A stretch of 64,000 nt of DNA, from sequence record MK962758; one strand, written 5' to 3'. Both the position numbers and the translations under genes were made by a program. Origin of the DNA: Shigella phage JK55. Within the stretch, counting starts at the first letter, position 1. Each line of letters starts with the position of its first letter. Below the pieces are notes generated by a model. That model had not been told where the DNA came from and ran no database searches. It worked only from the letters and a program-made list of their open reading frames with translations. Below are positions 12,994 through 57,220 of this stretch, piece by piece.

Positions 12994-13524
12994 ATGAACA
13001 AGTTTAAAGCTATCAACTTCATTCGTTCAAATGCTGTAATGTCAAAACCTGTAAAAGACACATACGAATTTCGCTGCAATGGGGTACACTTTGCAACCAT
13101 CACTAAGTCAGAAAACGGGGCTTATTACATTCATCGCCGTAATGTTTCTACTGTTGTAGTCTCTCACTTTATGCAAGCTGTAGCGGAATTATTACCGTTA
13201 TTCTTAGAGATTTACTTAGATGAGTGCAAAAACGTTCGTAACCACGTTAAAAACCTTTTAAACGGTTATAAAATGGCTTATGAACGTTCTATCAAGTCCT
13301 TAAACAAGTTTTATAAAGCCCCTGTAAATACTGTTTCAATGGCTTACAGTGTAAGCGGTGAGTTGGTTAGCCTCTTCGAAGTAGAAGAAATTGAACTATA
13401 TGACTCACGTCCTAGCGGTTACTCTAAGACACTGGGAGAAGGTTTATCTTTCAATATCAAGAACTTAGAAAAAACTTTAAAAGATATTGAAAAAGATATT
13501 GACGAAACAATCAAAAGTCTGTAA
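12994..13524 (+). CDS. hypothetical early protein (176 aa)
   Basis: ORF behind type-A cassette. Confidence 0.55.
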   Translation: MNKFKAINFIRSNAVMSKPVKDTYEFRCNGVHFATITKSENGAYYIHRRNVSTVVVSHFMQAVAELLPLFLEIYLDECKNVRNHVKNLLNGYKMAYERSIKSLNKFYKAPVNTVSMAYSVSGELVSLFEVEEIELYDSRPSGYSKTLGEGLSFNIKNLEKTLKDIEKDIDETIKSL

Positions 13525-13558
13525 ATTGTCAATCAACGGGGAGGGAATGACCTTCCCC
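13499..13558 (+). promoter_or_regulatory. type-A early cassette (TTGACG-17-TAAATT; hairpin); promoter lies inside 3' end of upstream gene
   Basis: -35 13499-13504, -10 13522-13527, hairpin 13538-13558. Confidence 0.55.
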
Positions 13559-13603
13559 GCTAAACAAAACCCTTAATCAACTTCCTAAACTGGAGATTCT
13601 AAA

Positions 13604-13852
13604 ATGGCTACTATCCGCGCAACTGTTAACGAATTTGGCTTCTACTCTCTGGACGTTAAATTTGACCTTGTAGGTACTGATAACGCCTTTGAAATGGTGA
13701 AAGGCCTTATCAGCCAGACCATCAGTGACTACAACCCCTCTGATGAATTCTGGAAAGAAACAAAACAAGAAGCCCTTAAAGATGGTTACACTTATCACTA
13801 TTGGGGCGAAAAAATTGTCTCCCTGTACTACGACAAAAAAGGCACTAACTAA
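13604..13852 (+). CDS. hypothetical small early protein (82 aa)
   Basis: ORF behind type-A cassette; last gene before the non-coding region. Confidence 0.55.
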   Translation: MATIRATVNEFGFYSLDVKFDLVGTDNAFEMVKGLISQTISDYNPSDEFWKETKQEALKDGYTYHYWGEKIVSLYYDKKGTN

Positions 13853-13890
13853 ACGCCGCAACGGGGCTAAATAGCCCCAGATACCTTTAC

Positions 13891-13941
13891 AGCCCCTTTC
13901 CCATATAGATTCGATAGAGTCTATCTCATAGGGGCTTTTTT
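13891..13941 (+). terminator. terminator-like hairpin (AGCCCCT...AGGGGCT + TTTTT) closing the plus-strand early array
   Basis: 7-bp stem with long structured loop then TTTTT; preceded by smaller hairpin GGGGCTAAATAGCCCC at 13864-13879. Confidence 0.5.
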
Positions 13942-14288
13942 ACGTCTTATCAAATCCCTTATACAACCCTTTCCCTTTCCTTTCCAGAATCTTATCAGAC
14001 CTTAAAAGCAATAACTCTATAGCTTACTCTATAGCCTTTTATTAAATCAACTTAAATATAAGCCCATAACCCGAAAGGGAAGGGCAACCATTTAAACGCT
14101 CTATAAAGCCCTATAACGGCCTTATTAACCTAACTTAAGGGATTGCATTACCTCACCCTTAAAAGCCCTTTATAAAGCTTCCCAGAGCCTTAAAAGAATC
14201 TTATAAGGGTATAAGCTTTATTATCTCGTTAGCTATCTTGTGAATAACTAAAAAGGGCTTGTTAGTGTCTTAAAAGTATGTTATAGGG

Positions 14289-14347
14289 GCTTAAAAGTTA
14301 CTTTGAAGTAGCTTAAAAGTTACTTTGAAGTAGCTTAAAAGTTACGT
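14289..14347. repeat. short tandem repeat, about 2.6 copies of 22-bp unit GCTTAAAAGTTACTTTGAAGTA
   Basis: Read directly: ...GGGGCTTAAAAGTTACTTTGAAGTAGCTTAAAAGTTACTTTGAAGTAGCTTAAAAGTTACG. Confidence 0.8.
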
Positions 14348-14389
14348 AAATGCTAGCCCCCTTAACAATTTCTTAACAATCCCTACATA

Positions 14390-15051
14390 GTTATGCTTTT
14401 AAGGCACTTGTTAGCAACTTGTTAGCCCCTTGTTAAATCTCTGTTAAGACCACGTAAAAGCCTTGTAAGAGTCTTTGACATAGCCTTTAAAGCTTCTGTA
14501 AAGCCTTATAAAAAGGTGTCTGTATAGTTGGGCTGTAGATACTAGGAAGAGACTTAAAAGAGCTTACAAGGAGCTATAGAGAGCTTTTAAGAGGGCTATT
14601 TAGAGATTCACTAGGGATTGGTAACAATACCAATTAAGAGGGAAAGGGAACGATAAGAAAAGAGTAGTGACCATGTTAACAACTTGTTAAAAAGATTAAA
14701 CACTTGTTAGGAACTTGTTAATTATCTTAACAAAATAACTCTTAACATTTAACTACTTAGCTCTTGTTAGTCATCTGTTAAGATTCTGTAAAGCCTATTC
14801 AGCAACTGTTAAGATTCTGTTACATCCTTGTTAGTTCTGTTAAGAATCTGTTAAGGCCTTTGAAGATTTGTTAAGAGCTTGAGAGAGTTGTTAAGAGATT
14901 GTTAAGGATATTTTAAAATTTTGCAAAGTACTTGTAAGGGAGTTGTTAAGGGCTACCAAGCAGATATACATCCTAATCAGATATTTTTCAGTTCCTTCAA
15001 AGACCCTAAAAAATGACTTGATAGCTCTATTTTATAAAAATTTTAAGATTC
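14390..15051. repeat. 662-bp tandem direct repeat, copy 1 (iteron-rich)
   Basis: Sequence from 14390 repeats at offset 662; all line-by-line spot checks identical. Confidence 0.85.
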
Positions 15052-15713
15052 GTTATGCTTTTAAGGCACTTGTTAGCAACTTGTTAGCCCCTTGTTAAAT
15101 CTCTGTTAAGACCACGTAAAAGCCTTGTAAGAGTCTTTGACATAGCCTTTAAAGCTTCTGTAAAGCCTTATAAAAAGGTGTCTGTATAGTTGGGCTGTAG
15201 ATACTAGGAAGAGACTTAAAAGAGCTTACAAGGAGCTATAGAGAGCTTTTAAGAGGGCTATTTAGAGATTCACTAGGGATTGGTAACAATACCAATTAAG
15301 AGGGAAAGGGAACGATAAGAAAAGAGTAGTGACCATGTTAACAACTTGTTAAAAAGATTAAACACTTGTTAGGAACTTGTTAATTATCTTAACAAAATAA
15401 CTCTTAACATTTAACTACTTAGCTCTTGTTAGTCATCTGTTAAGATTCTGTAAAGCCTATTCAGCAACTGTTAAGATTCTGTTACATCCTTGTTAGTTCT
15501 GTTAAGAATCTGTTAAGGCCTTTGAAGATTTGTTAAGAGCTTGAGAGAGTTGTTAAGAGATTGTTAAGGATATTTTAAAATTTTGCAAAGTACTTGTAAG
15601 GGAGTTGTTAAGGGCTACCAAGCAGATATACATCCTAATCAGATATTTTTCAGTTCCTTCAAAGACCCTAAAAAATGACTTGATAGCTCTATTTTATAAA
15701 AATTTTAAGATTC
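15052..15713. repeat. 662-bp tandem direct repeat, copy 2
   Basis: Identical to 14390-15051 in every segment compared. Confidence 0.85.
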
Positions 15714-16218
15714 TGAATAATTACCTATACAGTCTTTTAAAAATACAGGTAGAAACAGGCTTATAAGATACCTTGTTAGTACCGTGTTAGACCTTGTGAG
15801 ATAAGGTCTGTAAAGATATTCCTGTTAAGTTTGTTAAAACAGTCTATATAGAGGCTTAGTAATACCTAGTGAACACCTATAGAGAGTATCATAGCTAACC
15901 TAGAGATTAAGAGGTGTATAGGAGCTTCTAAGAGGGTGTAGAGAGATGGTTAAGGTGATTGTATAGGTTGTTAAGAAGGCTTGTTAGAAGAGTGTTTAGA
16001 AGGCTTGTTAGAGGGTTATTTAGAAGGGCTATACAGATGGGCTATTAAGACCACTAGATAGTTACTAAGATACTATATAGTACTATATAACTATATAGAG
16101 AGTAAGATTAAGAAGGTTGTTAAGAAGGATAGATATTTTGTTCACATATGATGGTGACCCAGAGGTTGGGACAACCGATAAAATTTTATAAAAAATATAA
16201 ATTTCGTAAATTTTACTC

Positions 16219-16249
16219 AATAAAAAGCCCCCAATTAAGGAGGCTCTTA
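16219..16249 (-). terminator. rho-independent terminator for minus-strand block
   Basis: On minus strand: GAGCCTCCTTAATTGGGGGCTTTTTATT (stem plus U-run) just after the stop of 16257..16850. Confidence 0.5.
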
Positions 16250-16256
16250 AGATATT

Positions 16257-16850
16257 TTAAATCAATGTTTCCAGAACTGTTTTTAGGGATGACTTAGTTG
16301 TCTGATAAAAATGAGTGAATCCGTTGTTGTTATCGAATATCTGCATCATGATATCATCTCCCTTGATTGGGTATACTCGGATATCATAGTGAAACCCGTT
16401 AAAGACAGCAGAACCATTACAGAACACACTAAAATCGTCCACTGAGATATACTCTTCATGTCCTGTGATTTTTATACAGACGCCTTTGCTCGGTCTCTTA
16501 GGGTTGATATCTTCCATCACAGACATACTCTGTCCACCAAGAGATACCATAGTGACCACTTTACGGTTCTTCTGTCTAAAGTACATTTTAACTTTCTGTA
16601 AAGTGTCTTCATAGAACGGATAAGACTTCTCTACAAAGATTCCTTCAAGTGGCTCTTTACCATTTTCAACTTCTCTGGTATGTCGTACTGCAAAGATAAT
16701 TTGTTGGAACCAGTCAAGATTTTCTTCGGAGAGTGCTTCACGAACATCACTCCAGTCAAGGACTAGGTAGTTACCTTCAACTTCTTTTAAGTTATCTTTT
16801 TCCATAGCTATCACACCATTATCGTAAAACTTGGTAGGCTGGTACTGCAA
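16257..16850 (-). CDS. hypothetical protein
   Basis: ORF in co-directional minus-strand block. Confidence 0.5.
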   Translation of the reverse strand: MQYQPTKFYDNGVIAMEKDNLKEVEGNYLVLDWSDVREALSEENLDWFQQIIFAVRHTREVENGKEPLEGIFVEKSYPFYEDTLQKVKMYFRQKNRKVVTMVSLGGQSMSVMEDINPKRPSKGVCIKITGHEEYISVDDFSVFCNGSAVFNGFHYDIRVYPIKGDDIMMQIFDNNNGFTHFYQTTKSSLKTVLETLI

Positions 16851-25489: not shown

Positions 25490-25566
25490 CTCTGTTTAGC
25501 TCAGCTTGGTAGAGCGTTCCGTTTGGGGCGGTAAGGCCGGAGGTTCAAGTCCTCCAACAGAGACCA
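25490..25566 (+). tRNA. tRNA-Pro (anticodon TGG)
   Basis: Hand-folded cloverleaf: 7-bp acceptor CTCTGTT/AACAGAG, D-arm GCTC..GAGC, anticodon loop TTTGGGG, T-arm GGAGGTTCAAGTCCTCC, CCA encoded. Confidence 0.7.
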
Positions 25567-25573
25567 AATTAAT

Positions 25574-25651
25574 GTTCCAGTAGACAAAATGGTATAGTCA
25601 CCACTCTTTCAAAGTGGATATCTGAGGGTTCAAATCCCTTCTGGAACGCCA
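25574..25651 (+). tRNA. tRNA-Glu (anticodon TTC)
   Basis: Acceptor GTTCCAG/CTGGAAC, anticodon stem CCACT/AGTGG with loop CTTTCAA, T-arm GAGGGTTCAAATCCCTT, CCA encoded. Confidence 0.6.
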
Positions 25652-25738
25652 GTTTTGACAGAAGACCAATTACAGCAAACTGAATCTACTCATCTGACAC
25701 GAAATCGGACAAAGAAGATATTTGGTCTGGTCATTAAG
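25652..25738 (+). ncRNA. repeated structured element, copy a (ACAGAAGACCAATTACAGCAA ... TTGGTCTGG)
   Basis: Shares 5' motif and covarying closing stem with copies b, c, d. Confidence 0.4.
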
Positions 25739-25741
25739 AAT

Positions 25742-25818
25742 TGCGGGTATAGAGAAAGGGCGTCTCACATGTCTCATTAGCATGGTATCGGCAGGTTCGA
25801 CTCCTGCACCCGCCTCCA
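25742..25818 (+). tRNA. tRNA-Met or Ile2 (anticodon CAT)
   Basis: Anticodon loop CTCATTA, T-arm GCAGGTTCGACTCCTGC, acceptor about 6/7 bp, CCA encoded. Confidence 0.55.
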
Positions 25819-25819
25819 A

Positions 25820-25892
25820 ATTTACAGAAGACCGTTTACAGCAATACTTATTAAATTTTTAGCGGAAAAATTGAAAGATGCGGTCTGGTAAT
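25820..25892 (+). ncRNA. repeated structured element, copy b (ACAGAAGACCGTTTACAGCAA ... CGGTCTGG)
   Basis: As above; closing stem AGACCG/CGGTCT. Confidence 0.4.
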
Positions 25893-25901
25893 ACTAAACA
25901 T

Positions 25902-25975
25902 GGTTAGGAAGCACATAAGGTATGTGCGGTCGCCTGTTAAGCGAATGGCACAGGGTTCGAATCCCTGACTAACCG
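25902..25975 (+). tRNA. tRNA-Asn (anticodon GTT)
   Basis: D-arm GCAC..GTGC, anticodon loop CTGTTAA, T-arm CAGGGTTCGAATCCCTG; no CCA encoded. Confidence 0.55.
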
Positions 25976-25986
25976 CAAAATTTAAA

Positions 25987-26075
25987 TGTGTCGTTATCCC
26001 GTAGATGGTAGCGGTGGGGACTGTAAATCCCTTGTCATTGAGACTCGGTAGGTTCGACTCCTACACGGCACACCA
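25987..26075 (+). tRNA. tRNA-Tyr (anticodon GTA), long variable arm
   Basis: Anticodon loop CTGTAAA, about 15-nt variable arm, T-arm GTAGGTTCGACTCCTAC, CCA encoded. Confidence 0.6.
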
Positions 26076-26080
26076 ATAAA

Positions 26081-26158
26081 GGTTATGTAGTTTAATTTGG
26101 TTAAAATACTCCCCTGTCACGGGAGATGATGAGGGTTCAAATCCCTTCGTAACCGCCA
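26081..26158 (+). tRNA. tRNA-Asp (anticodon GTC)
   Basis: Anticodon stem CTCCC/GGGAG with loop CTGTCAC, T-arm GAGGGTTCAAATCCCTT, CCA encoded. Confidence 0.6.
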
Positions 26159-26216
26159 ATTTTGAGAGGGCTATTTAGCCCCTCCCTTAAAGAGTTCTTA
26201 CGAGTATTCTTTAAAG

Positions 26217-26296
26217 GAGTAGAAGACCAAATACAGCAAGAATGTATGATATTTTCAAGCCAATTCAATTTTGAAAAAATTTAAAACTTGGTCTGG
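26217..26296 (+). ncRNA. repeated structured element, copy c (AGAAGACCAAATACAGCAA ... TTGGTCTGG)
   Basis: As above; closing stem AGACCAA/TTGGTCT. Confidence 0.4.
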
Positions 26297-26306
26297 CTCA
26301 ACAAAT

Positions 26307-26450
26307 TTACAGAAGACCGTTTACAGCAAAACTTAAACAATCTATTTCTCGGTAAAGAAAAGGCGAAGGTTCGATTCCTTCACTCGGCAGAGGTCGAGTT
26401 GGTGTAATGGTAGCACTTAAGATGATAAACAACGGTCTGGTAATTATCTT
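26307..26450 (+). ncRNA. repeated structured element, copy d, expanded; contains tRNA-like T-arm (GAAGGTTCGATTCCTTC) and D-arm-like segment
   Basis: Closing stem AGACCGTT/AACGGTCT; internal T-loop motif and TGGTGTAATGGTAGCAC D-arm-like segment, but no complete cloverleaf found. Confidence 0.35.
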
Positions 26451-26585
26451 TGTAGATAAGTTATTAAGCTTACCTGTGAGTATGCGACCACAAAGGGTGA
26501 AAGGGTAAATTCTAGATTTAAACCCAAAAAGTCACATCGCTACAGACCTTAAGCAAGTCTGGGTAGCTTATCTACAAAGATAATT
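26441..26585 (+). repeat. 19-bp perfect inverted repeat (TAATTATCTTTGTAGATAAG / CTTATCTACAAAGATAATT) enclosing 105 bp
   Basis: Arms at 26441-26460 and 26566-26584; candidate RNase III-type processing stem or miniature inverted-repeat element. Confidence 0.6.
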
Positions 26586-26589
26586 TAAT

Positions 26590-26665
26590 GGAAGTGTAGC
26601 AGAATGGTGATGCGGCAGACTTTTAATCTGACAGGCGATGGGTTCGAATCCCTCCACTTCTACCA
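26590..26665 (+). tRNA. tRNA-Lys (anticodon TTT)
   Basis: Acceptor GGAAGTG/CACTTCT, anticodon loop CTTTTAA, T-loop TTCGAAT with weak T-stem, CCA encoded. Confidence 0.5.
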
Positions 26666-26669
26666 AAAT

Positions 26670-26746
26670 GGTTCAGTCGCAGATAAGGTAATGCAAGGGT
26701 CTCATAAGCCCTATGAATGTGGGTTCGAATCCCATCTGAACCTCCA
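26670..26746 (+). tRNA. tRNA-Met or Ile2 (anticodon CAT), second copy
   Basis: Acceptor GGTTCAG/CTGAACC, anticodon stem AGGGT/GCCCT loop CTCATAA, T-arm GTGGGTTCGAATCCCAT, CCA encoded. Confidence 0.6.
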
Positions 26747-26748
26747 AT

Positions 26749-26823
26749 TGTGGGTTAGCATAAATGGTAATGCAAACGGCTGATAACCGTTAGAAGAGGG
26801 TTCGATACCCTCACCTACAACCA
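26749..26823 (+). tRNA. tRNA-Ile (anticodon GAT)
   Basis: Anticodon stem AACGG/CCGTT loop CTGATAA, T-arm GAGGGTTCGATACCCTC, CCA encoded. Confidence 0.6.
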
Positions 26824-26838
26824 AATTCAATAAAGTTG

Positions 26839-26867
26839 TTGACATTGAGATGTGACTACTTTATAGT
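26839..26867 (+). promoter_or_regulatory. sigma70-like promoter inside tRNA cluster (TTGACA-17-TATAGT)
   Basis: -35 26839-26844, -10 26862-26867; about 200 nt of non-tRNA sequence follows before the next tRNA. Confidence 0.55.
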
Positions 26868-27070
26868 ACCCTTAGTTTTCGTTGCGTAGCGTCTATTTTG
26901 CAAATTTAAAATAAATGCAAACGACAATGTTTTTCTGGCAGTAGCTTGATAGGCTAAACACCAGTGAGGTCTTCCAATCCCTCATCAAAGAATTTGGCGT
27001 ACTCGCCCACGGTATGATTAATAAGGTGGGCATCTTTAAGGGCTTTCTAAGAGAGTCTTTAAAGATTAAT

Positions 27071-27147
27071 GCACCCTTAGTTCAACTGGACAGAGCAAAT
27101 GACTTCTAATCATTGAGTTACAGGTTCGAATCCTGTAGGGTGCGCCA
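27071..27147 (+). tRNA. tRNA-Arg (anticodon TCT)
   Basis: Acceptor GCACCCT/AGGGTGC, anticodon stem AATGA/TCATT loop CTTCTAA, T-arm ACAGGTTCGAATCCTGT, CCA encoded. Confidence 0.65.
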
Positions 27148-27289
27148 ATTAGTTAGCAGATTACTTAGACGACCTAAGCGGGTCTTCCTGTAGGGAGGTG
27201 GTCTGTATCTCATGTTTTCCAGAACATGTAAATAATCTGAGAAGGGGCTTTACAGTGTTGAGATAATACGGTAAGTTTCGAATTATAGT

Positions 27290-27372
27290 ATGGGACGATG
27301 TTAAGACTCTAAGGCATGAGCAACGGCCTCCAAAACCGTTTCAAAGGGGTTCAACTCCTCCGTCCCATGCCA
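27290..27372 (+). tRNA. atypical tRNA-like gene (possible anticodon CCA in an enlarged 9-nt loop; isotype unresolved)
   Basis: Perfect acceptor ATGGGAC/GTCCCAT, T-arm AGGGGTTCAACTCCTCC, CCA encoded, but 83 nt long with about 7 extra nt between acceptor and anticodon arm; stem AACGG/CCGTT encloses CCTCCAAAA. Confidence 0.35.
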
Positions 27373-27385
27373 AAGTCTTATTAGT

Positions 27386-27473
27386 GGTAGGTAGCGGCTA
27401 ATGGTAGCCAAACTGTCTTGAAAACAGTTGCCACTGTAGAGATACGGTGAGGGTTCGACTCCTTTACTTACCG
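27386..27473 (+). tRNA. tRNA-Ser (anticodon TGA), long variable arm
   Basis: Anticodon stem ACTGT/ACAGT loop CTTGAAA, long variable arm, T-arm GAGGGTTCGACTCCTTT; no CCA encoded. Confidence 0.55.
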
Positions 27474-27730
27474 CCTAATAAGATTTAAAGCCAAGCTTCA
27501 TTCGGATGTTGCTTTGGTATCCCTCGTGTATTGTCGTACACACTAATAAAGCACCTAGTAGGTGTCACGGAGAAGAGATAATATCAAGCTCTCCAAAGGT
27601 TCTAGTCACCGGATTAAACAAGACTATGCAAAGACCTTTTTAGGTCTTTTTAGAGGGCTTCTAAGGTTATTACAGCTTGTTGTGGAACCTTGTTGCTTAG
27701 GTTCTTAGAAGTTCTCTAAAAAGGTTTAAT

Positions 27731-27808
27731 GGGAGATTGACGGTAATTGGTAAACCTATCTCGCTTAGAACGAGATGTTTGAGGGTTCGAATCCCTTGTC
27801 TCCTACCA
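27731..27808 (+). tRNA. tRNA with anticodon TAG (Leu by code) but short variable arm
   Basis: Anticodon stem TCTCG/CGAGA loop CTTAGAA, T-arm GAGGGTTCGAATCCCTT, CCA encoded; class-I length. Confidence 0.45.
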
Positions 27809-27815
27809 AATTAAT

Positions 27816-27891
27816 GCAGGTGTAGCAAAATGGTTATGCGGCTGACTCTTAATCAGTAAGACGATGGGTTCAATTCCCTCCACCTGTACCA
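27816..27891 (+). tRNA. tRNA-Lys (anticodon CTT)
   Basis: Acceptor GCAGGTG/CACCTGT, anticodon stem GCTGA/TCAGT loop CTCTTAA, T-loop TTCAATT, CCA encoded; paralog of tRNA-Lys(TTT). Confidence 0.5.
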
Positions 27892-27897
27892 AACAAT

Positions 27898-27973
27898 GGG
27901 GTCATAGTTTATATGGTTAAAATTCGAGTTTTGCAAACTTGGGAACTGAGTTCAATTCTCAGTGACTCCACCA
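27898..27973 (+). tRNA. tRNA-Ala (anticodon TGC)
   Basis: Anticodon stem CGAGT/ACTTG loop TTTGCAA, T-arm CTGAGTTCAATTCTCAG, CCA encoded. Confidence 0.5.
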
Positions 27974-27979
27974 ATTAGT

Positions 27980-28054
27980 GCATCCATAGTTTAAACGGGA
28001 AAATTACAGTCTTCCAAACTGAGGTTGAGGGTTCGATTCCCTCTGGATGCTCCA
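27980..28054 (+). tRNA. tRNA-Gly (anticodon TCC)
   Basis: Perfect acceptor GCATCCA/TGGATGC, anticodon loop CTTCCAA, T-arm GAGGGTTCGATTCCCTC, CCA encoded. Confidence 0.6.
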
Positions 28055-28060
28055 AACAAT

Positions 28061-28137
28061 GCTGCTTTCGTATAATTGGCTATTACACATCCCTTGTAAG
28101 GATGGAAATGCAGGTTCGAGTCCTGTGAGCAGCACCA
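28061..28137 (+). tRNA. tRNA-Thr (anticodon TGT)
   Basis: Anticodon stem CATCC/GGATG loop CTTGTAA, T-arm GCAGGTTCGAGTCCTGT, CCA encoded. Confidence 0.65.
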
Positions 28138-28140
28138 ATT

Positions 28141-28232
28141 CAGAGGTCAAGTGAAAGACCGCTGGTGTCAACTGAAGACCGTAACAAATTCCACGGAGTT
28201 GAGTTAGCGGCACAACTTCAGACCTCTTTCAC
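28141..28232 (+). ncRNA. structured non-tRNA element between tRNA-Thr and tRNA-Val (nested inverted repeats)
   Basis: AGAGGTC...GACCTCT outer inverted repeat, CTGAAG...CTTCAG inner repeat, contains the GAAGACCGT motif shared with copies a-d; no T-loop motif. Confidence 0.35.
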
Positions 28233-28307
28233 ACTCGCTTAGTTTATATGGTAAAACATCACCCTTACAAGATGAAGAAAAAGGTTCAAGTCCTTTAGTG
28301 AGTACCA
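28233..28307 (+). tRNA. tRNA-Val (anticodon TAC)
   Basis: Acceptor ACTCGCT/AGTGAGT, anticodon loop CTTACAA, T-arm AAGGTTCAAGTCCTT, CCA encoded. Confidence 0.5.
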
Positions 28308-28308
28308 T

Positions 28309-28386
28309 GTTCCAGTATCCCAATTGGCAGAGGATGCAAGCTCAAACCTTGTATTAGTGACGGTTCGAATCCGTCTTGGAACACCA
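28309..28386 (+). tRNA. tRNA with anticodon CAA (Leu by code) but short variable arm
   Basis: Acceptor GTTCCAG/TTGGAAC, anticodon stem GCAAG/CTTGT loop CTCAAAC, T-arm GACGGTTCGAATCCGTC, CCA encoded. Confidence 0.45.
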
Positions 28387-28405
28387 ATTTTAAGAGGCTA
28401 TTTAG

Positions 28406-28963
28406 ATGAGATATTTGAAGTATGCTTCATGGATTTTCTTAGCTTTACTAGAACCATTTGCAGCAACCCTAGCAGTCATCTTAGCACCTTTCGTAGTTCC
28501 ATTCTACAGTGAGAAGAAAGGGCATCTACCTTTTGGATTCAGATGGATGGAGACCTATGACAACCCGATTGATGGTGATAAAGGCCACGTTGAGAGATGG
28601 GCTAAGATTAGAAAGATTGGCAAGCTCGGTGTTTATATGCAGAGAGTTGGATGGCTCTGGAGAAACAAAGCTTATAACTTCTCTTACCATGTATTAGGAA
28701 GAGATGTAAAAGATGTTACTAAGTGGAAAGGTAATATCAACGTAAGTTCTGACCCTGAAGATAATCAGACAGGTTATCTCCTAATGTGGAACAACAATGC
28801 TTGGGGATTATTCGCTTTTATTCCGTCAATTAAAATCTTTGGTAAACAGTTTTACTGGAGAATTTATGTTGGATGGAAACTAAAAAGTGTTGTCCCAGAA
28901 GAAAGAGCATTCTCAAGGGAAAGAGTTATGTTGGCATTCTTTATTCATCCACTGAGAAAGTAA
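28406..28963 (+). CDS. hypothetical membrane protein embedded in tRNA cluster
   Basis: N-terminal hydrophobic segments (IFLALLEPFAATLAVILAPFVVPF); AAGAGG RBS 9 nt upstream. Confidence 0.55.
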   Translation: MRYLKYASWIFLALLEPFAATLAVILAPFVVPFYSEKKGHLPFGFRWMETYDNPIDGDKGHVERWAKIRKIGKLGVYMQRVGWLWRNKAYNFSYHVLGRDVKDVTKWKGNINVSSDPEDNQTGYLLMWNNNAWGLFAFIPSIKIFGKQFYWRIYVGWKLKSVVPEERAFSRERVMLAFFIHPLRK

Positions 28964-28971
28964 AGATTTAA

Positions 28972-29047
28972 AGGGGATTAGTTTACAAGGTTAAAACCTC
29001 GGTCTTTGAAATCGAAGAAGTTGGTTCAATTCCAACATCCCCCGCCA
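28972..29047 (+). tRNA. tRNA-Gln (anticodon TTG)
   Basis: Anticodon stem TCGGT/ATCGA loop CTTTGAA, T-arm GTTGGTTCAATTCCAAC, CCA encoded. Confidence 0.55.
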
Positions 29048-29049
29048 AT

Positions 29050-29128
29050 GCTCCATTACTCCAATTGGCAGAGAGGCCAGACTTAAAATCTGTGTTATGT
29101 ATCGGTTCGAATCCGATATGGAGTACCA
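29050..29128 (+). tRNA. tRNA with anticodon TAA (Leu by code) but short variable arm
   Basis: Acceptor GCTCCAT/ATGGAGT, anticodon loop CTTAAAA, T-arm ATCGGTTCGAATCCGAT, CCA encoded; D-arm paralogous to the CAA tRNA. Confidence 0.45.
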
Positions 29129-29133
29129 AATTT

Positions 29134-29209
29134 AGCGGTATAGCATAACTGGCAATGCAGCAGTCTCTGAAGCTGTCTTATTAAGGTTCAAATCCTTATG
29201 CCGCTGCCA
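29134..29209 (+). tRNA. tRNA-Gln (anticodon CTG)
   Basis: Acceptor AGCGGTA/TGCCGCT, anticodon loop CTCTGAA, T-arm TAAGGTTCAAATCCTTA, CCA encoded. Confidence 0.5.
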
Positions 29210-29240
29210 CTTCTAAGGGTTCTTACGAGAGTCCTTAAAT

Positions 29241-29316
29241 GTGGCCTTATCATAAATGGTAATGACCCATGCTGTGAACATGGTCTATACGGGTTCAAAT
29301 CCCGTAGGTCACCCCA
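29241..29316 (+). tRNA. tRNA-His (anticodon GTG)
   Basis: Anticodon stem CCATG/CATGG loop CTGTGAA, T-arm ACGGGTTCAAATCCCGT, CCA encoded. Confidence 0.65.
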
Positions 29317-29322
29317 ATTTAT

Positions 29323-29398
29323 AGTCCAAGTAGCTTATATGGTTAAAGCGCGTGTCTGAAAAACATGAGAAGAGGGTTCGAATCCCACTGGACTACCA
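29323..29398 (+). tRNA. tRNA-Phe (anticodon GAA)
   Basis: Anticodon stem CGTGT/ACATG loop CTGAAAA, T-loop TTCGAAT, CCA encoded. Confidence 0.55.
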
Positions 29399-29416
29399 AT
29401 TTCAAAGGTGCTTAAT

Positions 29417-30149
29417 GAAAGAGATGACAGAACAAGGTAAGGAGATTTTTAATCTCTTAAAAACCGGTAAAGGGTTTTCTAACCCACTTATTACTGGTGC
29501 AGCAGTTCTCGGTGGAACCGTAGCTGCTTCTACATCACTTGTAAGCTCTATTAGTTCTGTAACAGACCCTACAATGCAGGAGAAACTTGTTGCTGCTGGA
29601 CTTACAACAGTCCTTCTAAACAGCTTTACAACAAGCCTTACAAGCACTACAGCAACTACTAAAACTCTGACAGACTACGGTCAAAAGTCTATTGATGAGT
29701 TTTCATCACGTATGCAGGTAGCAAAGGGGTATTCCAATGTTATGGGTGCAGCAGGAGAGCAAGTTGGTTGTACACCATTCAGTGGTATCATGGGTGTTGC
29801 TACAGAGTATGGTCAAAAAGCTATTAACATGATGAACAGTACACTAGATAGTGTTAATGGTGTGTTAAGTGACTTACAAGATGCTATTGATAAGGGTCTT
29901 GATACTGTTTCTGATTTAGCTAATCAGGCTGTTAGTAAGATTAATGAAGGTATTTCAAAGATTACAGCTTATGCAGATGAAGTTGTGCAGATGATTGAAG
30001 AAGAAGCTTCCCTTATTGCAGAGTACCTTAAAACGAATATCAATGGGTTCTTAGCAGGTATCTTACCAGACTGGTTTGATGATGCCTGTAAAACTGGTGT
30101 GATTGACACTATTGCAACACCAGAAATGAAGAGCGCATTACAGAAATAA
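29417..30149 (+). CDS. hypothetical protein (Ser/Thr/Ala-rich N-terminal region) embedded in tRNA cluster
   Basis: Start moved to ATG 29417 (AAAGGTG upstream) because the track start 29352 lies inside tRNA-Phe. Confidence 0.5.
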
Positions 30150-30150
30150 T

Positions 30151-30243
30151 GGAAGATTAACCCTAAAAGGTAAGGGAGCAGTTTGCTAAACTGCCAGTAG
30201 CTGAGAAATCGGTGTACCAGTTCAAGTCTGGTATCTTCCTCCA
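30151..30243 (+). tRNA. tRNA-Ser (anticodon GCT), long variable arm
   Basis: Perfect acceptor GGAAGAT/ATCTTCC, anticodon stem GCAGT/ACTGC loop TTGCTAA, about 20-nt variable arm, T-arm ACCAGTTCAAGTCTGGT, CCA encoded. Confidence 0.7.
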
Positions 30244-30247
30244 ATTT

Positions 30248-30323
30248 GAATCCGTGACAGAAATGGATATGTGCCTGTCTGCAAAACAGGTTTATAAGGG
30301 TTCGAGTCCCTTCGGATTCTCCA
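30248..30323 (+). tRNA. tRNA-Cys (anticodon GCA)
   Basis: Perfect acceptor GAATCCG/CGGATTC, anticodon stem CCTGT/ACAGG loop CTGCAAA, T-arm AAGGGTTCGAGTCCCTT, CCA encoded. Confidence 0.7.
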
Positions 30324-30545: not shown

Positions 30546-30746
30546 ATGAGTGAGGCCGTTTATAAAGAACTTTATGAAGCTAACAAAAAGCTAGAATTTA
30601 TGCAGAACACTATCATGGCAATTGCAGATAGATTATCTGTAGCAACAGGTATTGATATCAAAGAAGCCTCTATGGATGCACTTCTTGATGCTGTTGATGC
30701 AAAGTTCGAAGTTAAGAAAGAAGAGACTGCTACAGACTCTGAATAA
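30546..30746 (+). CDS. hypothetical small protein upstream of terminase (small-terminase candidate by position only)
   Basis: 66-aa ORF immediately 5' of the large terminase gene. Confidence 0.35.
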   Translation: MSEAVYKELYEANKKLEFMQNTIMAIADRLSVATGIDIKEASMDALLDAVDAKFEVKKEETATDSE

Positions 30747-30767
30747 TTCTATTTGCGGAGGTGCTTA

Positions 30768-32369
30768 ATGGACTTAAATGCTGTTAAGCAGAAGCGAGTG
30801 GAAGATGTTAGGAAAGTCCTAGCTGGAGAGTTGGGGCTTTCTGATGAAGTAAAAGAAATTATCAAATCATTCGGTAAAGACCCCTCTAAATTCCTTCCAA
30901 CTCAAATTCTGACTTTATTAAGATACACACCAGACCAAGTTCGCCTTATCTTTAAGTTGATGACTGATAAGAACTATGTAGCCCCTCAGCCGGGTTCTCA
31001 AGAGGTCTTTTTAAACACTAATGCTGACTTGGTACTCTATGGTGGTGCTGCTGGTGCTGGTAAGACTGCTGCATTGTTAATGGACTCTTTAAGATTTATT
31101 GAAGACCCTAACTATAATGCTGTGTATTTCCGTCGAAACACAACACAGCTACAAGGTGGTTTATGGCCTGCTGCAAAGAAACTATTTGGTAAGTTTGGTG
31201 GGATTCCTCACGAGCAGAAAATGACTATTACATTCCCTTCTGGGGCAACTATCAAGTTTACCTACCTAGAACTTGAAAAGCACGCTGAAGGTCATCAGGG
31301 TATTGAATACTCAGCTATTTACTTTGACGAAGGTACACACTTTTCTGCTTCACAGATTTCATATCTACAAACCCGTTTACGTTCTGGTGCTGAAGGTGAT
31401 TCATACATGAAGATTTCCATGAACCCAGACAGAGACCACTTTATTTATGATTGGGTAGAACCATTCTTAGATGAAGAAGGTTATCCAGACCCTGAAAAGT
31501 GTGGTCGTATTCGTTGGTATGTAATGAATGATGGTGTGATGGTTTCTGATTGGGAGAGAGACAAGATTCTTGAAATGTTCCCTCTGGAGATTCCTCAAAC
31601 ATACACCTTCATCTCTGGTACGATTGATGATAACCCAATTCTTGACTTCTTAGAACCTAAGTACCGTGGTAAGCTGGAAAACAACACCCCTGTAAACGTT
31701 GCAAGACTTCGTTTCGGTAACTGGAAGGCTCGTGCAGAAGGTTCAAACTATTGGCAAAGGCAATGGTGTGAAATTGTTGATTCACTCCCAGAGGATGTAT
31801 TTGATGTTAGAGCATGGGACTTAGCAGCAACTTTACCATCTGAAATTAACCCTAATCCAGACTGGACAGCAGGTGTTAAGATGGGTAAATCTAAAAAAGA
31901 CGGTTGCTATTATATCATTGATGTAGTAAGATTTAGAGATAGACCCTCTGGAGTCGAAACACAAATTAATTTGACTGCTGAAAGTGACGGTAAGCGAACT
32001 GGTATTTTTATCCCTCAAGACCCAGGCGCTGCTGGTAAATCCTACGCAACATCCCTCATCAGGAAACTTGCCGAGAAAGGTTATCGAGCAAGAGCCAAAC
32101 CAACAAATAAAGATAAAGTTACCCGCTTTGCGGGGTTTTCTGCTGCTTCTGAAGCTGGACTTGTAAAAGTTTTGAGAGGTAGTTGGAACGAAGCTTATTT
32201 CCAAGAGCTTGAAGGCTTTTGTGGTGATGGCAAAACTAAAGATGACCAAGTGGATGCTACCAGTGATGCTTTCAACAGTCTTAACGAAGTTAAATTATTC
32301 AAGCCACCATCAATGGGTGCTCACACAGACTTAGTGAGAGGAAACCCATATGAGGGGCTTAGACGTTGA
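30768..32369 (+). CDS. terminase large subunit
   Basis: Walker A P-loop LYGGAAGAGKT near N-terminus; first gene of head module; start set at ATG 30768 behind GGAGG RBS (track start 30753). Confidence 0.75.
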   Translation: MDLNAVKQKRVEDVRKVLAGELGLSDEVKEIIKSFGKDPSKFLPTQILTLLRYTPDQVRLIFKLMTDKNYVAPQPGSQEVFLNTNADLVLYGGAAGAGKTAALLMDSLRFIEDPNYNAVYFRRNTTQLQGGLWPAAKKLFGKFGGIPHEQKMTITFPSGATIKFTYLELEKHAEGHQGIEYSAIYFDEGTHFSASQISYLQTRLRSGAEGDSYMKISMNPDRDHFIYDWVEPFLDEEGYPDPEKCGRIRWYVMNDGVMVSDWERDKILEMFPLEIPQTYTFISGTIDDNPILDFLEPKYRGKLENNTPVNVARLRFGNWKARAEGSNYWQRQWCEIVDSLPEDVFDVRAWDLAATLPSEINPNPDWTAGVKMGKSKKDGCYYIIDVVRFRDRPSGVETQINLTAESDGKRTGIFIPQDPGAAGKSYATSLIRKLAEKGYRARAKPTNKDKVTRFAGFSAASEAGLVKVLRGSWNEAYFQELEGFCGDGKTKDDQVDATSDAFNSLNEVKLFKPPSMGAHTDLVRGNPYEGLRR

Positions 32370-56890: not shown

Positions 56891-57220
56891 CTAGTCTGCC
56901 AACCTTAAATTGAAATTAACACCAAATTTTTCACATACTTCCAACATATACTCAAGGGAAACATTACCAGTGAGGTGGATTATGTTGGATACACGAGCCT
57001 GAGAGATACCACAAATTTTAGCAACTTGCTCTTGAGAAAGACCTCTGGATTTAATCTCTCTCTTAAAACGATGTGCAACGAAGTCTCTCATTTCGTCTAC
57101 ATCCATTGGACAAATATAACTCTCCATTTCAGCCTCTCTATCAGCCTCCCAATCATCTTGTGGAGCATAAGGGTCAAAAACTTCATTCATCTTTCTTCTT
57201 CCGTTTGCGTGAAGTGTCAA
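56891..57220 (-). CDS. helix-turn-helix DNA-binding protein (XRE/Cro-like)
   Basis: RGLSQEQVAKICGISQARVSNIIH matches HTH pattern. Confidence 0.55.
   Translation of the reverse strand: MTLHANGRRKMNEVFDPYAPQDDWEADREAEMESYICPMDVDEMRDFVAHRFKREIKSRGLSQEQVAKICGISQARVSNIIHLTGNVSLEYMLEVCEKFGVNFNLRLAD

Follow-up and report, generated by a model that had tools for sequence, protein, structure and literature searches.

Shigella phage JK55 (record MK962758) carries, at positions 13862-16256 of the 64,000-nt stretch of its DNA analyzed here (the window), a locus that is free of long open reading frames (ORFs) and dense in short repeats. On the sequence evidence, the phage is a Felix O1-like myovirus and this locus is probably its concatemer junction and packaging region; that is, the locus would comprise a direct terminal repeat (DTR) of about 600 bp together with its non-coding flanks, and the array of YTGTTAR units that it contains would likely be a packaging platform. 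An earlier note, written from the letters of the window, had offered three readings, namely an iteron-type replication origin, a centromere-like partition site, or a binding array for a phage DNA-binding protein. The last of these is compatible with our results and was probably right in spirit, while the other two are not supported. The list omitted a terminal repeat and physical genome ends, which are demonstrated for the genus by the ends of relatives. At the level of the genus the identity of the locus is in fact already known, as it has been mapped in UAB_Phi87 and annotated in UAB_69.

Homologous DNA, 80-91% identical to the locus, is found in 256 phage records, almost all of Felixounavirus, a genus of Felix O1-like myoviruses that infect E. 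coli, Salmonella, Shigella and Citrobacter; it always lies between the same convergent genes. Judged by its sequence, the JK55 window is likewise from a Felixounavirus. The claim that no ORF of 60 aa or more occurs on either strand of 13862-16256 was confirmed, the longest being 53 aa. The flanking genes are the last gene of the right end, encoding 82 aa on the plus strand, and the first gene of the left end, encoding 197 aa on the minus strand. In relatives the locus is about 1650 bp long, and the excess in JK55 is due to a 662-bp duplication, described below; with the second copy removed, the non-redundant JK55 locus measures 1733 bp. The window is a piece collinear with Felix O1, not an end-to-end virion sequence.

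The physical ends are placed at this locus by homology, from the records of relatives and, in the case of UAB_Phi87, from experiment. The records of ZX4221, NBEco004 and vB_EcoM_D4 hold both copies of the repeat, with lengths of 591 bp (an exact repeat), 628 bp and 581 bp, respectively, and all three start with GCCCCCTTAACA and finish with TGTTAAGGGCTACC. In UAB_69, a repeat_region labeled DTR spans 618 bp; its boundaries are at most 2 nt off those of the other records, the feature starting 2 nt earlier. Several further records stop at the equivalent of position 14957. In the window, these end sequences are found at 14355/14356 (GTTACGTAAATGCTA/GCCCCCTTAACA) and at 14957/14958 (TGTTAAGGGCTACC/AAGCAGATATACA), where the slash marks the boundary. 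Because the end sequences of relatives map there, we take 14356-14957, a segment of 602 bp, to be the JK55 equivalent of the repeat, with putative terminase cut sites at its left (14354-14357) and right (14956-14959) boundaries. Both boundary sequences are conserved in nine aligned genomes from three genera (Felixounavirus, Suspvirus and Mooglevirus), and the right one is invariant. Related ends, TTAGCCACTTTTACA at the start and GGCCACTAA/GTAGATATACA at the finish, are also seen in Erwinia phage M7, a Kolesnikvirus whose record contains a 444-bp repeat. Thus, conserved sequences of the kind expected of cleavage sites are present at both boundaries.

Published work on related phages agrees with this placement. 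For UAB_Phi87, Bal31 digestion combined with run-off sequencing demonstrated a 608-bp repeat, and the same report cites Felix O1 and FO1a as having repeats of about that length (PMC4837284). PhageTerm gave repeats of 613 bp for Ro111lw (PMC6454146) and 581 bp for Pr103Blw (PMC8303462), and a 439-bp repeat has been described in a Hafnia Kolesnikvirus (PMC8928762); in the original Felix O1 paper, short terminal repeats were inferred from the genome size (PMC3185647). The enzyme expected to cut both boundaries is the large terminase subunit (TerL), encoded at 30753-32369 on the plus strand and recognized by Pfam Terminase_6N and Terminase_6C and by PHROG 979. Felixounavirus TerL proteins cluster with DTR-generating enzymes in a published tree, from which we take the clade placement (PMC4837284). 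JK55 has in common with the DTRs of UAB_Phi87, UAB_69, Ro111lw, Pr103Blw and vB_EcoM_D4 the homologous sequence, the gene neighbors, the boundaries and the array. It differs from them in the extra 662-bp copy, in lacking one of the 11-bp CTTAACATTTT units found at the left boundary, and in a private insertion of 23 bp with an inverted repeat (ATTGGTAACAATACCAAT). This insertion lies at 14613-14635, and again at 15275-15297 in the second copy, and is absent from all eight aligned relatives.

The most conspicuous feature of the locus is its repeat array. TGTTAR or its complement YTAACA occurs 53 times in 2395 bp, or 22 per kb, against 1.67 per kb in the rest of the window, the latter being the density expected from base composition; the earlier description of this DNA as saturated with the motif is therefore accurate. 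About 40% of the raw count is supplied by the second 662-bp copy. In the non-redundant 1733 bp there are 32 motifs, compared with 3.2 +/- 1.75, and a maximum of 11, in 1000 dinucleotide-preserving shuffles. The extended consensus is a-c-T-TGTTA-A/G-G-A. No other comparable cluster of the motif exists within the 64-kb window; secondary clusters at 18.8-19.3 kb and 29.8-29.9 kb were considered and rejected, being at chance level and of mixed orientation. The motifs had also been said to occur in both orientations; what we find instead is a strong strand bias, with 27 of the non-redundant motifs on the plus strand and five on the minus strand. Nor are the two 'perfect palindromes' reported in the locus quite that, since TTAACAACTTGTTAA consists of 7-bp arms around a central base and ATTGGTAACAATACCAAT of 7-bp arms around a 4-nt spacer.

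The spacing of the motifs is helical, as had been claimed, with same-strand distances peaking at 11, 20/22, 31, 42, 51 and 62 bp. A computational count of the periodicity, which the earlier note had named as a check, gives a best period of 10.25-10.5 bp, and the observed score was reached by none of 5000 jittered controls. The same period is found in nine relatives, and the motif recurs at this period in Suspvirus, Mooglevirus and Kolesnikvirus; in the alignment the motif columns are more conserved than the others (0.92 versus 0.82). The array is thus real, phased and conserved. It is also concentrated in the repeat: 23 of the 32 non-redundant motifs are inside the 602 bp (18 on the plus strand and five on the minus strand); of the others, eight follow it on the right, in unique DNA of the left genome end, and one precedes it on the left, in unique DNA of the right genome end. 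A related unit (CTTAAAAG, CTTATAA) prevails to the left of the repeat, oriented opposite to the array. Up to 14372, 11 of 12 CTTAA/TTAAG cores are in the CTTAA orientation; over the first 40 bp of the repeat, this shared core switches orientation. Read inward, the left end begins GCCCC-CTTAACA(-N4-CTTAACA) and the right end GGTAGCC-CTTAACA; that is, the two cut sites each have a copy of CTTAACA 5-7 bp to their inner side, and these copies mirror each other.

Insertions and deletions in the locus are also quantized. Among the window and eight relatives, their lengths are 1-4 bp or else 11/12, 21-24, 25-29 and 33 bp, and lengths of 5-10 and 13-20 bp are missing. The locus evolves by whole-turn modules, a pattern that could result from slippage on 11-bp units, from selection to keep the helical phase, or from the two together.

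We propose the following scheme for how such a locus would work. In the replicating concatemer, each junction would contain one repeat (14356-14957), located between the genes for the 82-aa (plus-strand) and 197-aa (minus-strand) proteins. During packaging, terminase would cut at two fixed sites, TA/GCCCCC (14355/14356) and GGGCTACC/AA (14957/14958), and JK55 presumably uses the same sites as its relatives. The repeat would be duplicated in the process, as in the scheme known from T7, so that each virion DNA would start and end with the same 602 bp. The YTGTTAR units, one turn apart on one helix face, would serve as a platform where a protein for packaging or for end recognition assembles and positions both cuts, the candidates for this protein being a small terminase subunit or another phage DNA-binding protein. 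We infer this role because the array presents one helix face and fills the repeat, and because its mirror copies abut both cut sites.

An exact tandem duplication, which the earlier note does not mention, sets JK55 apart. Positions 14390-15051, comprising repeat positions 35-602 and the 94 bp that follow, are 100% identical to positions 15052-15713, and the junction between the two copies is blunt, without microhomology. When the junction was used as a query, every relative listed matched it as two separate pieces, and the junction is absent from IMG/VR. The duplication copies the right-hand cut site, the second of which ends at 15619, and not the left-hand one. A simple join of one DTR to another was ruled out as its source, for relative to the conserved termini its boundaries are offset by +34 and +94 bp. 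The duplication is either a recent real event or an untrimmed assembly or circularization overlap of a re-oriented contig; the perfect identity and the blunt junction fit both explanations equally. If it is real, JK55 would possess a second right-hand cut site and could produce terminal repeats of either 602 or 1264 bp. In either case, an exact duplication here serves as a warning of assembly artefacts or of genuine instability at terminal repeats.

Several points weigh against a packaging region organized in this manner. The end positions in JK55 are taken from relatives and not from its own reads. The 662-bp duplication, displaced from the repeat boundaries by +34 and +94 bp, is left unexplained by the joining of two repeat copies, and slippage on 11-bp repeats, as opposed to selection for helical phase, could account for the quantized indels. 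Because the block that is most conserved lies outside the repeat, the locus may have a further cis-acting function besides packaging, for instance as an origin or promoter. Finally, searches of Pfam and PHROGs with the ORFs upstream of TerL and with the genes flanking the locus did not find a small terminase or a binder of the motif: the upstream ORFs match only families of unknown function, and the flanking proteins match no known functional family. By its position, one of the ORFs near TerL is a candidate packaging cofactor. It encodes a 66-aa acidic, helical and probably coiled-coil protein at 30546-30746, 7 bp upstream of the TerL gene, and is 97-100% conserved in Felixounavirus; according to the annotation names retrieved with tblastn, it is hypothetical in all 256 records that have it.

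Among the alternatives, the one that survives best is that the array binds a protein, phage- or host-encoded, that does something other than package DNA, such as capping the injected linear ends against RecBCD, bringing ends into synapsis to form concatemers, or silencing transcription into the ends. We regard this as unlikely, though it is not exclusive of a packaging role and could be compatible with it. In its favor, the array is real, lies on one helix face and is conserved across four genera, and a protein bound to the repeat would be placed at the two ends of virion DNA. The PhageMaP paper suggests that Bas63 lacks an inhibitor of RecBCD, and it reports no data for this intergenic region. 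An XRE-type helix-turn-helix protein is encoded at 56891-57220 on the minus strand, and no link between it and the motif was found. On the other side, the mirror copies of the motif abut both cut sites, which ties the motifs to cleavage, and a binder was not found for this role either.

The second alternative is an iteron-type origin, in which an initiator would bind the direct repeats and melt the adjoining AT-rich DNA (15020-15050 and 15690-15725). Iteron origins of the lambda ori, P1 oriR and pSC101 class have 3-7 copies of a 17-22-bp iteron and a cognate initiator gene. The JK55 locus resembles them in having direct repeats at helical spacing beside AT-rich DNA, as the array is adjoined by a highly conserved block of which one part, 14958-15051, is 27% GC. 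The block as a whole, 14958-15051 plus 15714-15950, lies just inside the left-hand repeat and is 95-97% identical within Felixounavirus and 81-83% identical to Suspvirus and Mooglevirus. It is more conserved than most neighboring genes and has long invariant runs across three genera, while the non-coding DNA overall is about as conserved as the neighboring accessory genes. The part at 15714-15950 includes the AT-rich element CTATTTTATAAAAATTTTAAGATTCTGAATAAT and further TGTTAG/TGTTAAG units; the AT-rich element CTATTTTATAAAAATTTTA and a weak sigma-70-like site (15693-15721) are also found in the block. This AT-rich, conserved DNA to the right of the repeat may have an origin function. For the array itself, however, the origin reading is improbable. 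The array consists of 32 copies of an 11-bp module with a 7-bp core, that is, of units shorter and far more numerous than known iterons, and an initiator was not found: none is annotated in a complete relative annotated with Pharokka, in which many proteins are hypothetical, and the proteins flanking the locus are without a known family. The replication genes of that relative form a T7-like set (primase/helicase, polymerase, exonuclease and ligase), and T7 replication genes do not use iterons. The locus contains one weak DnaA-box-like match and no consensus site for IHF; the host-factor boxes for IHF, DnaA and Chi are essentially absent from it. Cumulative GC skew, which had been suggested as a check for an origin, does have a local maximum near 16 kb, but this turn falls on a switch of gene strand, and the turns near 23 kb and 54 kb fall on such switches too. 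Because of this coincidence, GC skew is uninformative here.

It is very improbable that the locus codes for small proteins or for a structured non-coding RNA. In some records short 'hypothetical proteins' are annotated in it, yet no ORF of at least 30 aa is conserved in nine aligned relatives, Bas63 has none in 1662 bp, and the motif itself contains TAA or TAG. As to transcription, the weak sigma-70-like site noted above could be taken as a promoter; a scan for sigma-70 promoters gave 16 weak matches against 9 expected, which is not convincing, as the excess arises mostly because TTAACA resembles TTGACA. Consensus folds were detected at 14085-14256, but in sliding windows analyzed with RNAalifold the folds stand out mainly at the terminators; column-shuffle z-scores from RNAalifold were inflated and were not used as evidence for RNA. 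An Rfam scan of 13400-16700 yielded no family at E <= 1 apart from one sub-threshold chance match at the right edge, with 23.7 bits against a gathering score of 55. A centromere-like partition site, finally, has the general look of a repeat array in its favor and hardly merits belief, as ParA/ParB or plasmid-maintenance genes are not annotated in the complete relative genome, the phage is virulent with a linear genome, and the locus holds its physical ends.

The concatemer junction and packaging region that we favor can be compared with those of better-known phages. The T7 terminal repetition, as reportedly described by Dunn and Studier in 1983, has flanking arrays of short repeats, SRL and SRR. 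JK55 would resemble T7 in having a short, exact, non-permuted repeat derived from concatemers and arrays of ~7-bp repeats at the junction, and T7-like replisome genes occur in its relatives. The T7 repeat, in contrast, is 160 bp long and its arrays flank it, whereas in JK55 the array fills the repeat; the motifs also differ, and the small terminase of T7 is known, while none was identified in JK55. The heptamer ATCTGTT overlaps some of the array units in JK55, at 14773 and 14846 (and at 15435 and 15508). We take this heptamer to be the class II pause signal of T7 RNA polymerase at the T7 concatemer junction. The match is probably a coincidence, since no phage RNA polymerase is reported in the Felix O1 paper (PMC3185647); T7 processing, in contrast, involves pausing of the phage's own RNA polymerase at the junction (PMC3276506).

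Other phages offer partial parallels. The pacL and pacR sequences of SPP1 and the R sites of lambda cosB are arrays bound by the small terminase, thought to wrap or bend the DNA on the oligomeric subunit. They share with the JK55 array the use of short motifs in helical phase beside a terminase cut site. The packaging of these phages is headful or through cohesive ends, with one cut region, whereas the JK55 array is bracketed by two sites 602 bp apart; also, their small subunit has no identified counterpart in JK55. In T5, the long terminal repeat of about 10 kb encodes genes, and within it an ORF-free repeat region goes by the name of injection stop signal and is linked to the two-step DNA transfer of this phage. 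The similarity is that of a gene-free stretch dense in direct and inverted repeats and tied to a terminal repeat. In T5, however, this stretch is inside a coding repeat, and two-step DNA transfer is not known for Felix O1-like phages.

A broader proposal, which we put forward tentatively and with rather less than even confidence, is that the array might be a recognition platform in all Ounavirinae. A non-canonical small terminase or end-binding protein would polymerize on one face of the ~600 bp, the mirror-oriented terminal motifs would set both cuts, and the helical phase would be under selection, as the quantization of indels at 11, 22 and 33 bp suggests. If the 662-bp duplication is real, JK55 would then have both right-hand sites and could form repeats of both lengths.

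The remaining parts of the locus can be described from left to right. Terminators had been claimed at both of its edges, and they are indeed there. The hairpin region at 13863-13945 (plus strand), which includes GGGGCTAAATAGCCCC and AGCCCCT...AGGGGCTTTTTT, closes the rightward gene block; it is the strongest conserved consensus fold of the locus, and AYO145A has an annotated terminator at the homologous place. The right-end unique non-coding DNA (13950-14355) follows, with the CTTAA-oriented repeats mentioned above. In virion DNA it would precede the right-hand terminal repeat, and it contains a 22-bp tandem repeat (14289-14345) whose copy number differs among relatives. This DNA shows repeat expansions in two relatives: in DE7, short tandem repeats with units of ~69 bp corresponding to window positions 14087-14178, and in VSe11, an expansion corresponding to 14241-14350. 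Beyond the repeat, the duplication and the conserved block, the rest of the left-end non-coding DNA (15951-16227) has 12/24-bp tandem repeats at 15965-16027, TATATAG repeats at 16071-16099 and a conserved TCACATATGATGGTGACCC. An intrinsic terminator at 16228-16242 (minus strand), with an annotated counterpart in AYO145A at the same position, closes the leftward gene block.

Two observations concern the window at large. A cluster of 25 tRNA genes occupies 25490-30323 on the plus strand, just upstream of the terminase gene. A listed ORF with a GTG start, 29352-30149, overlaps the tRNA-Phe gene; because of this overlap, its true start is probably further downstream. Separately, the sequence GATC, the site of Dam and of MboI/Sau3AI, is completely avoided in the window, with no occurrence in 64 kb compared with 181 +/- 13 in dinucleotide-preserving shuffles.

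In the Felix O1 and VpaE1 genome papers and in a Danish coliphage survey we found no description of the phased array, of the mirrored placement of its motifs at the boundaries, of the conservation of the array in Ounavirinae, or of the whole-turn indels. Thus, while the locus is known in the genus, the array itself appears to be undescribed. Felix O1-like phages serve in diagnostics, biocontrol and therapy, and knowing their ends and likely packaging signals helps in orienting and annotating genomes, in rebooting and engineering these phages, and in designing packaging-competent vectors. The array, the mirrored placement of its motifs at the two cut sites and the whole-turn indels together amount to a testable model of how a T7-type repeat may be recognized in a myovirus that is without an annotated small terminase.

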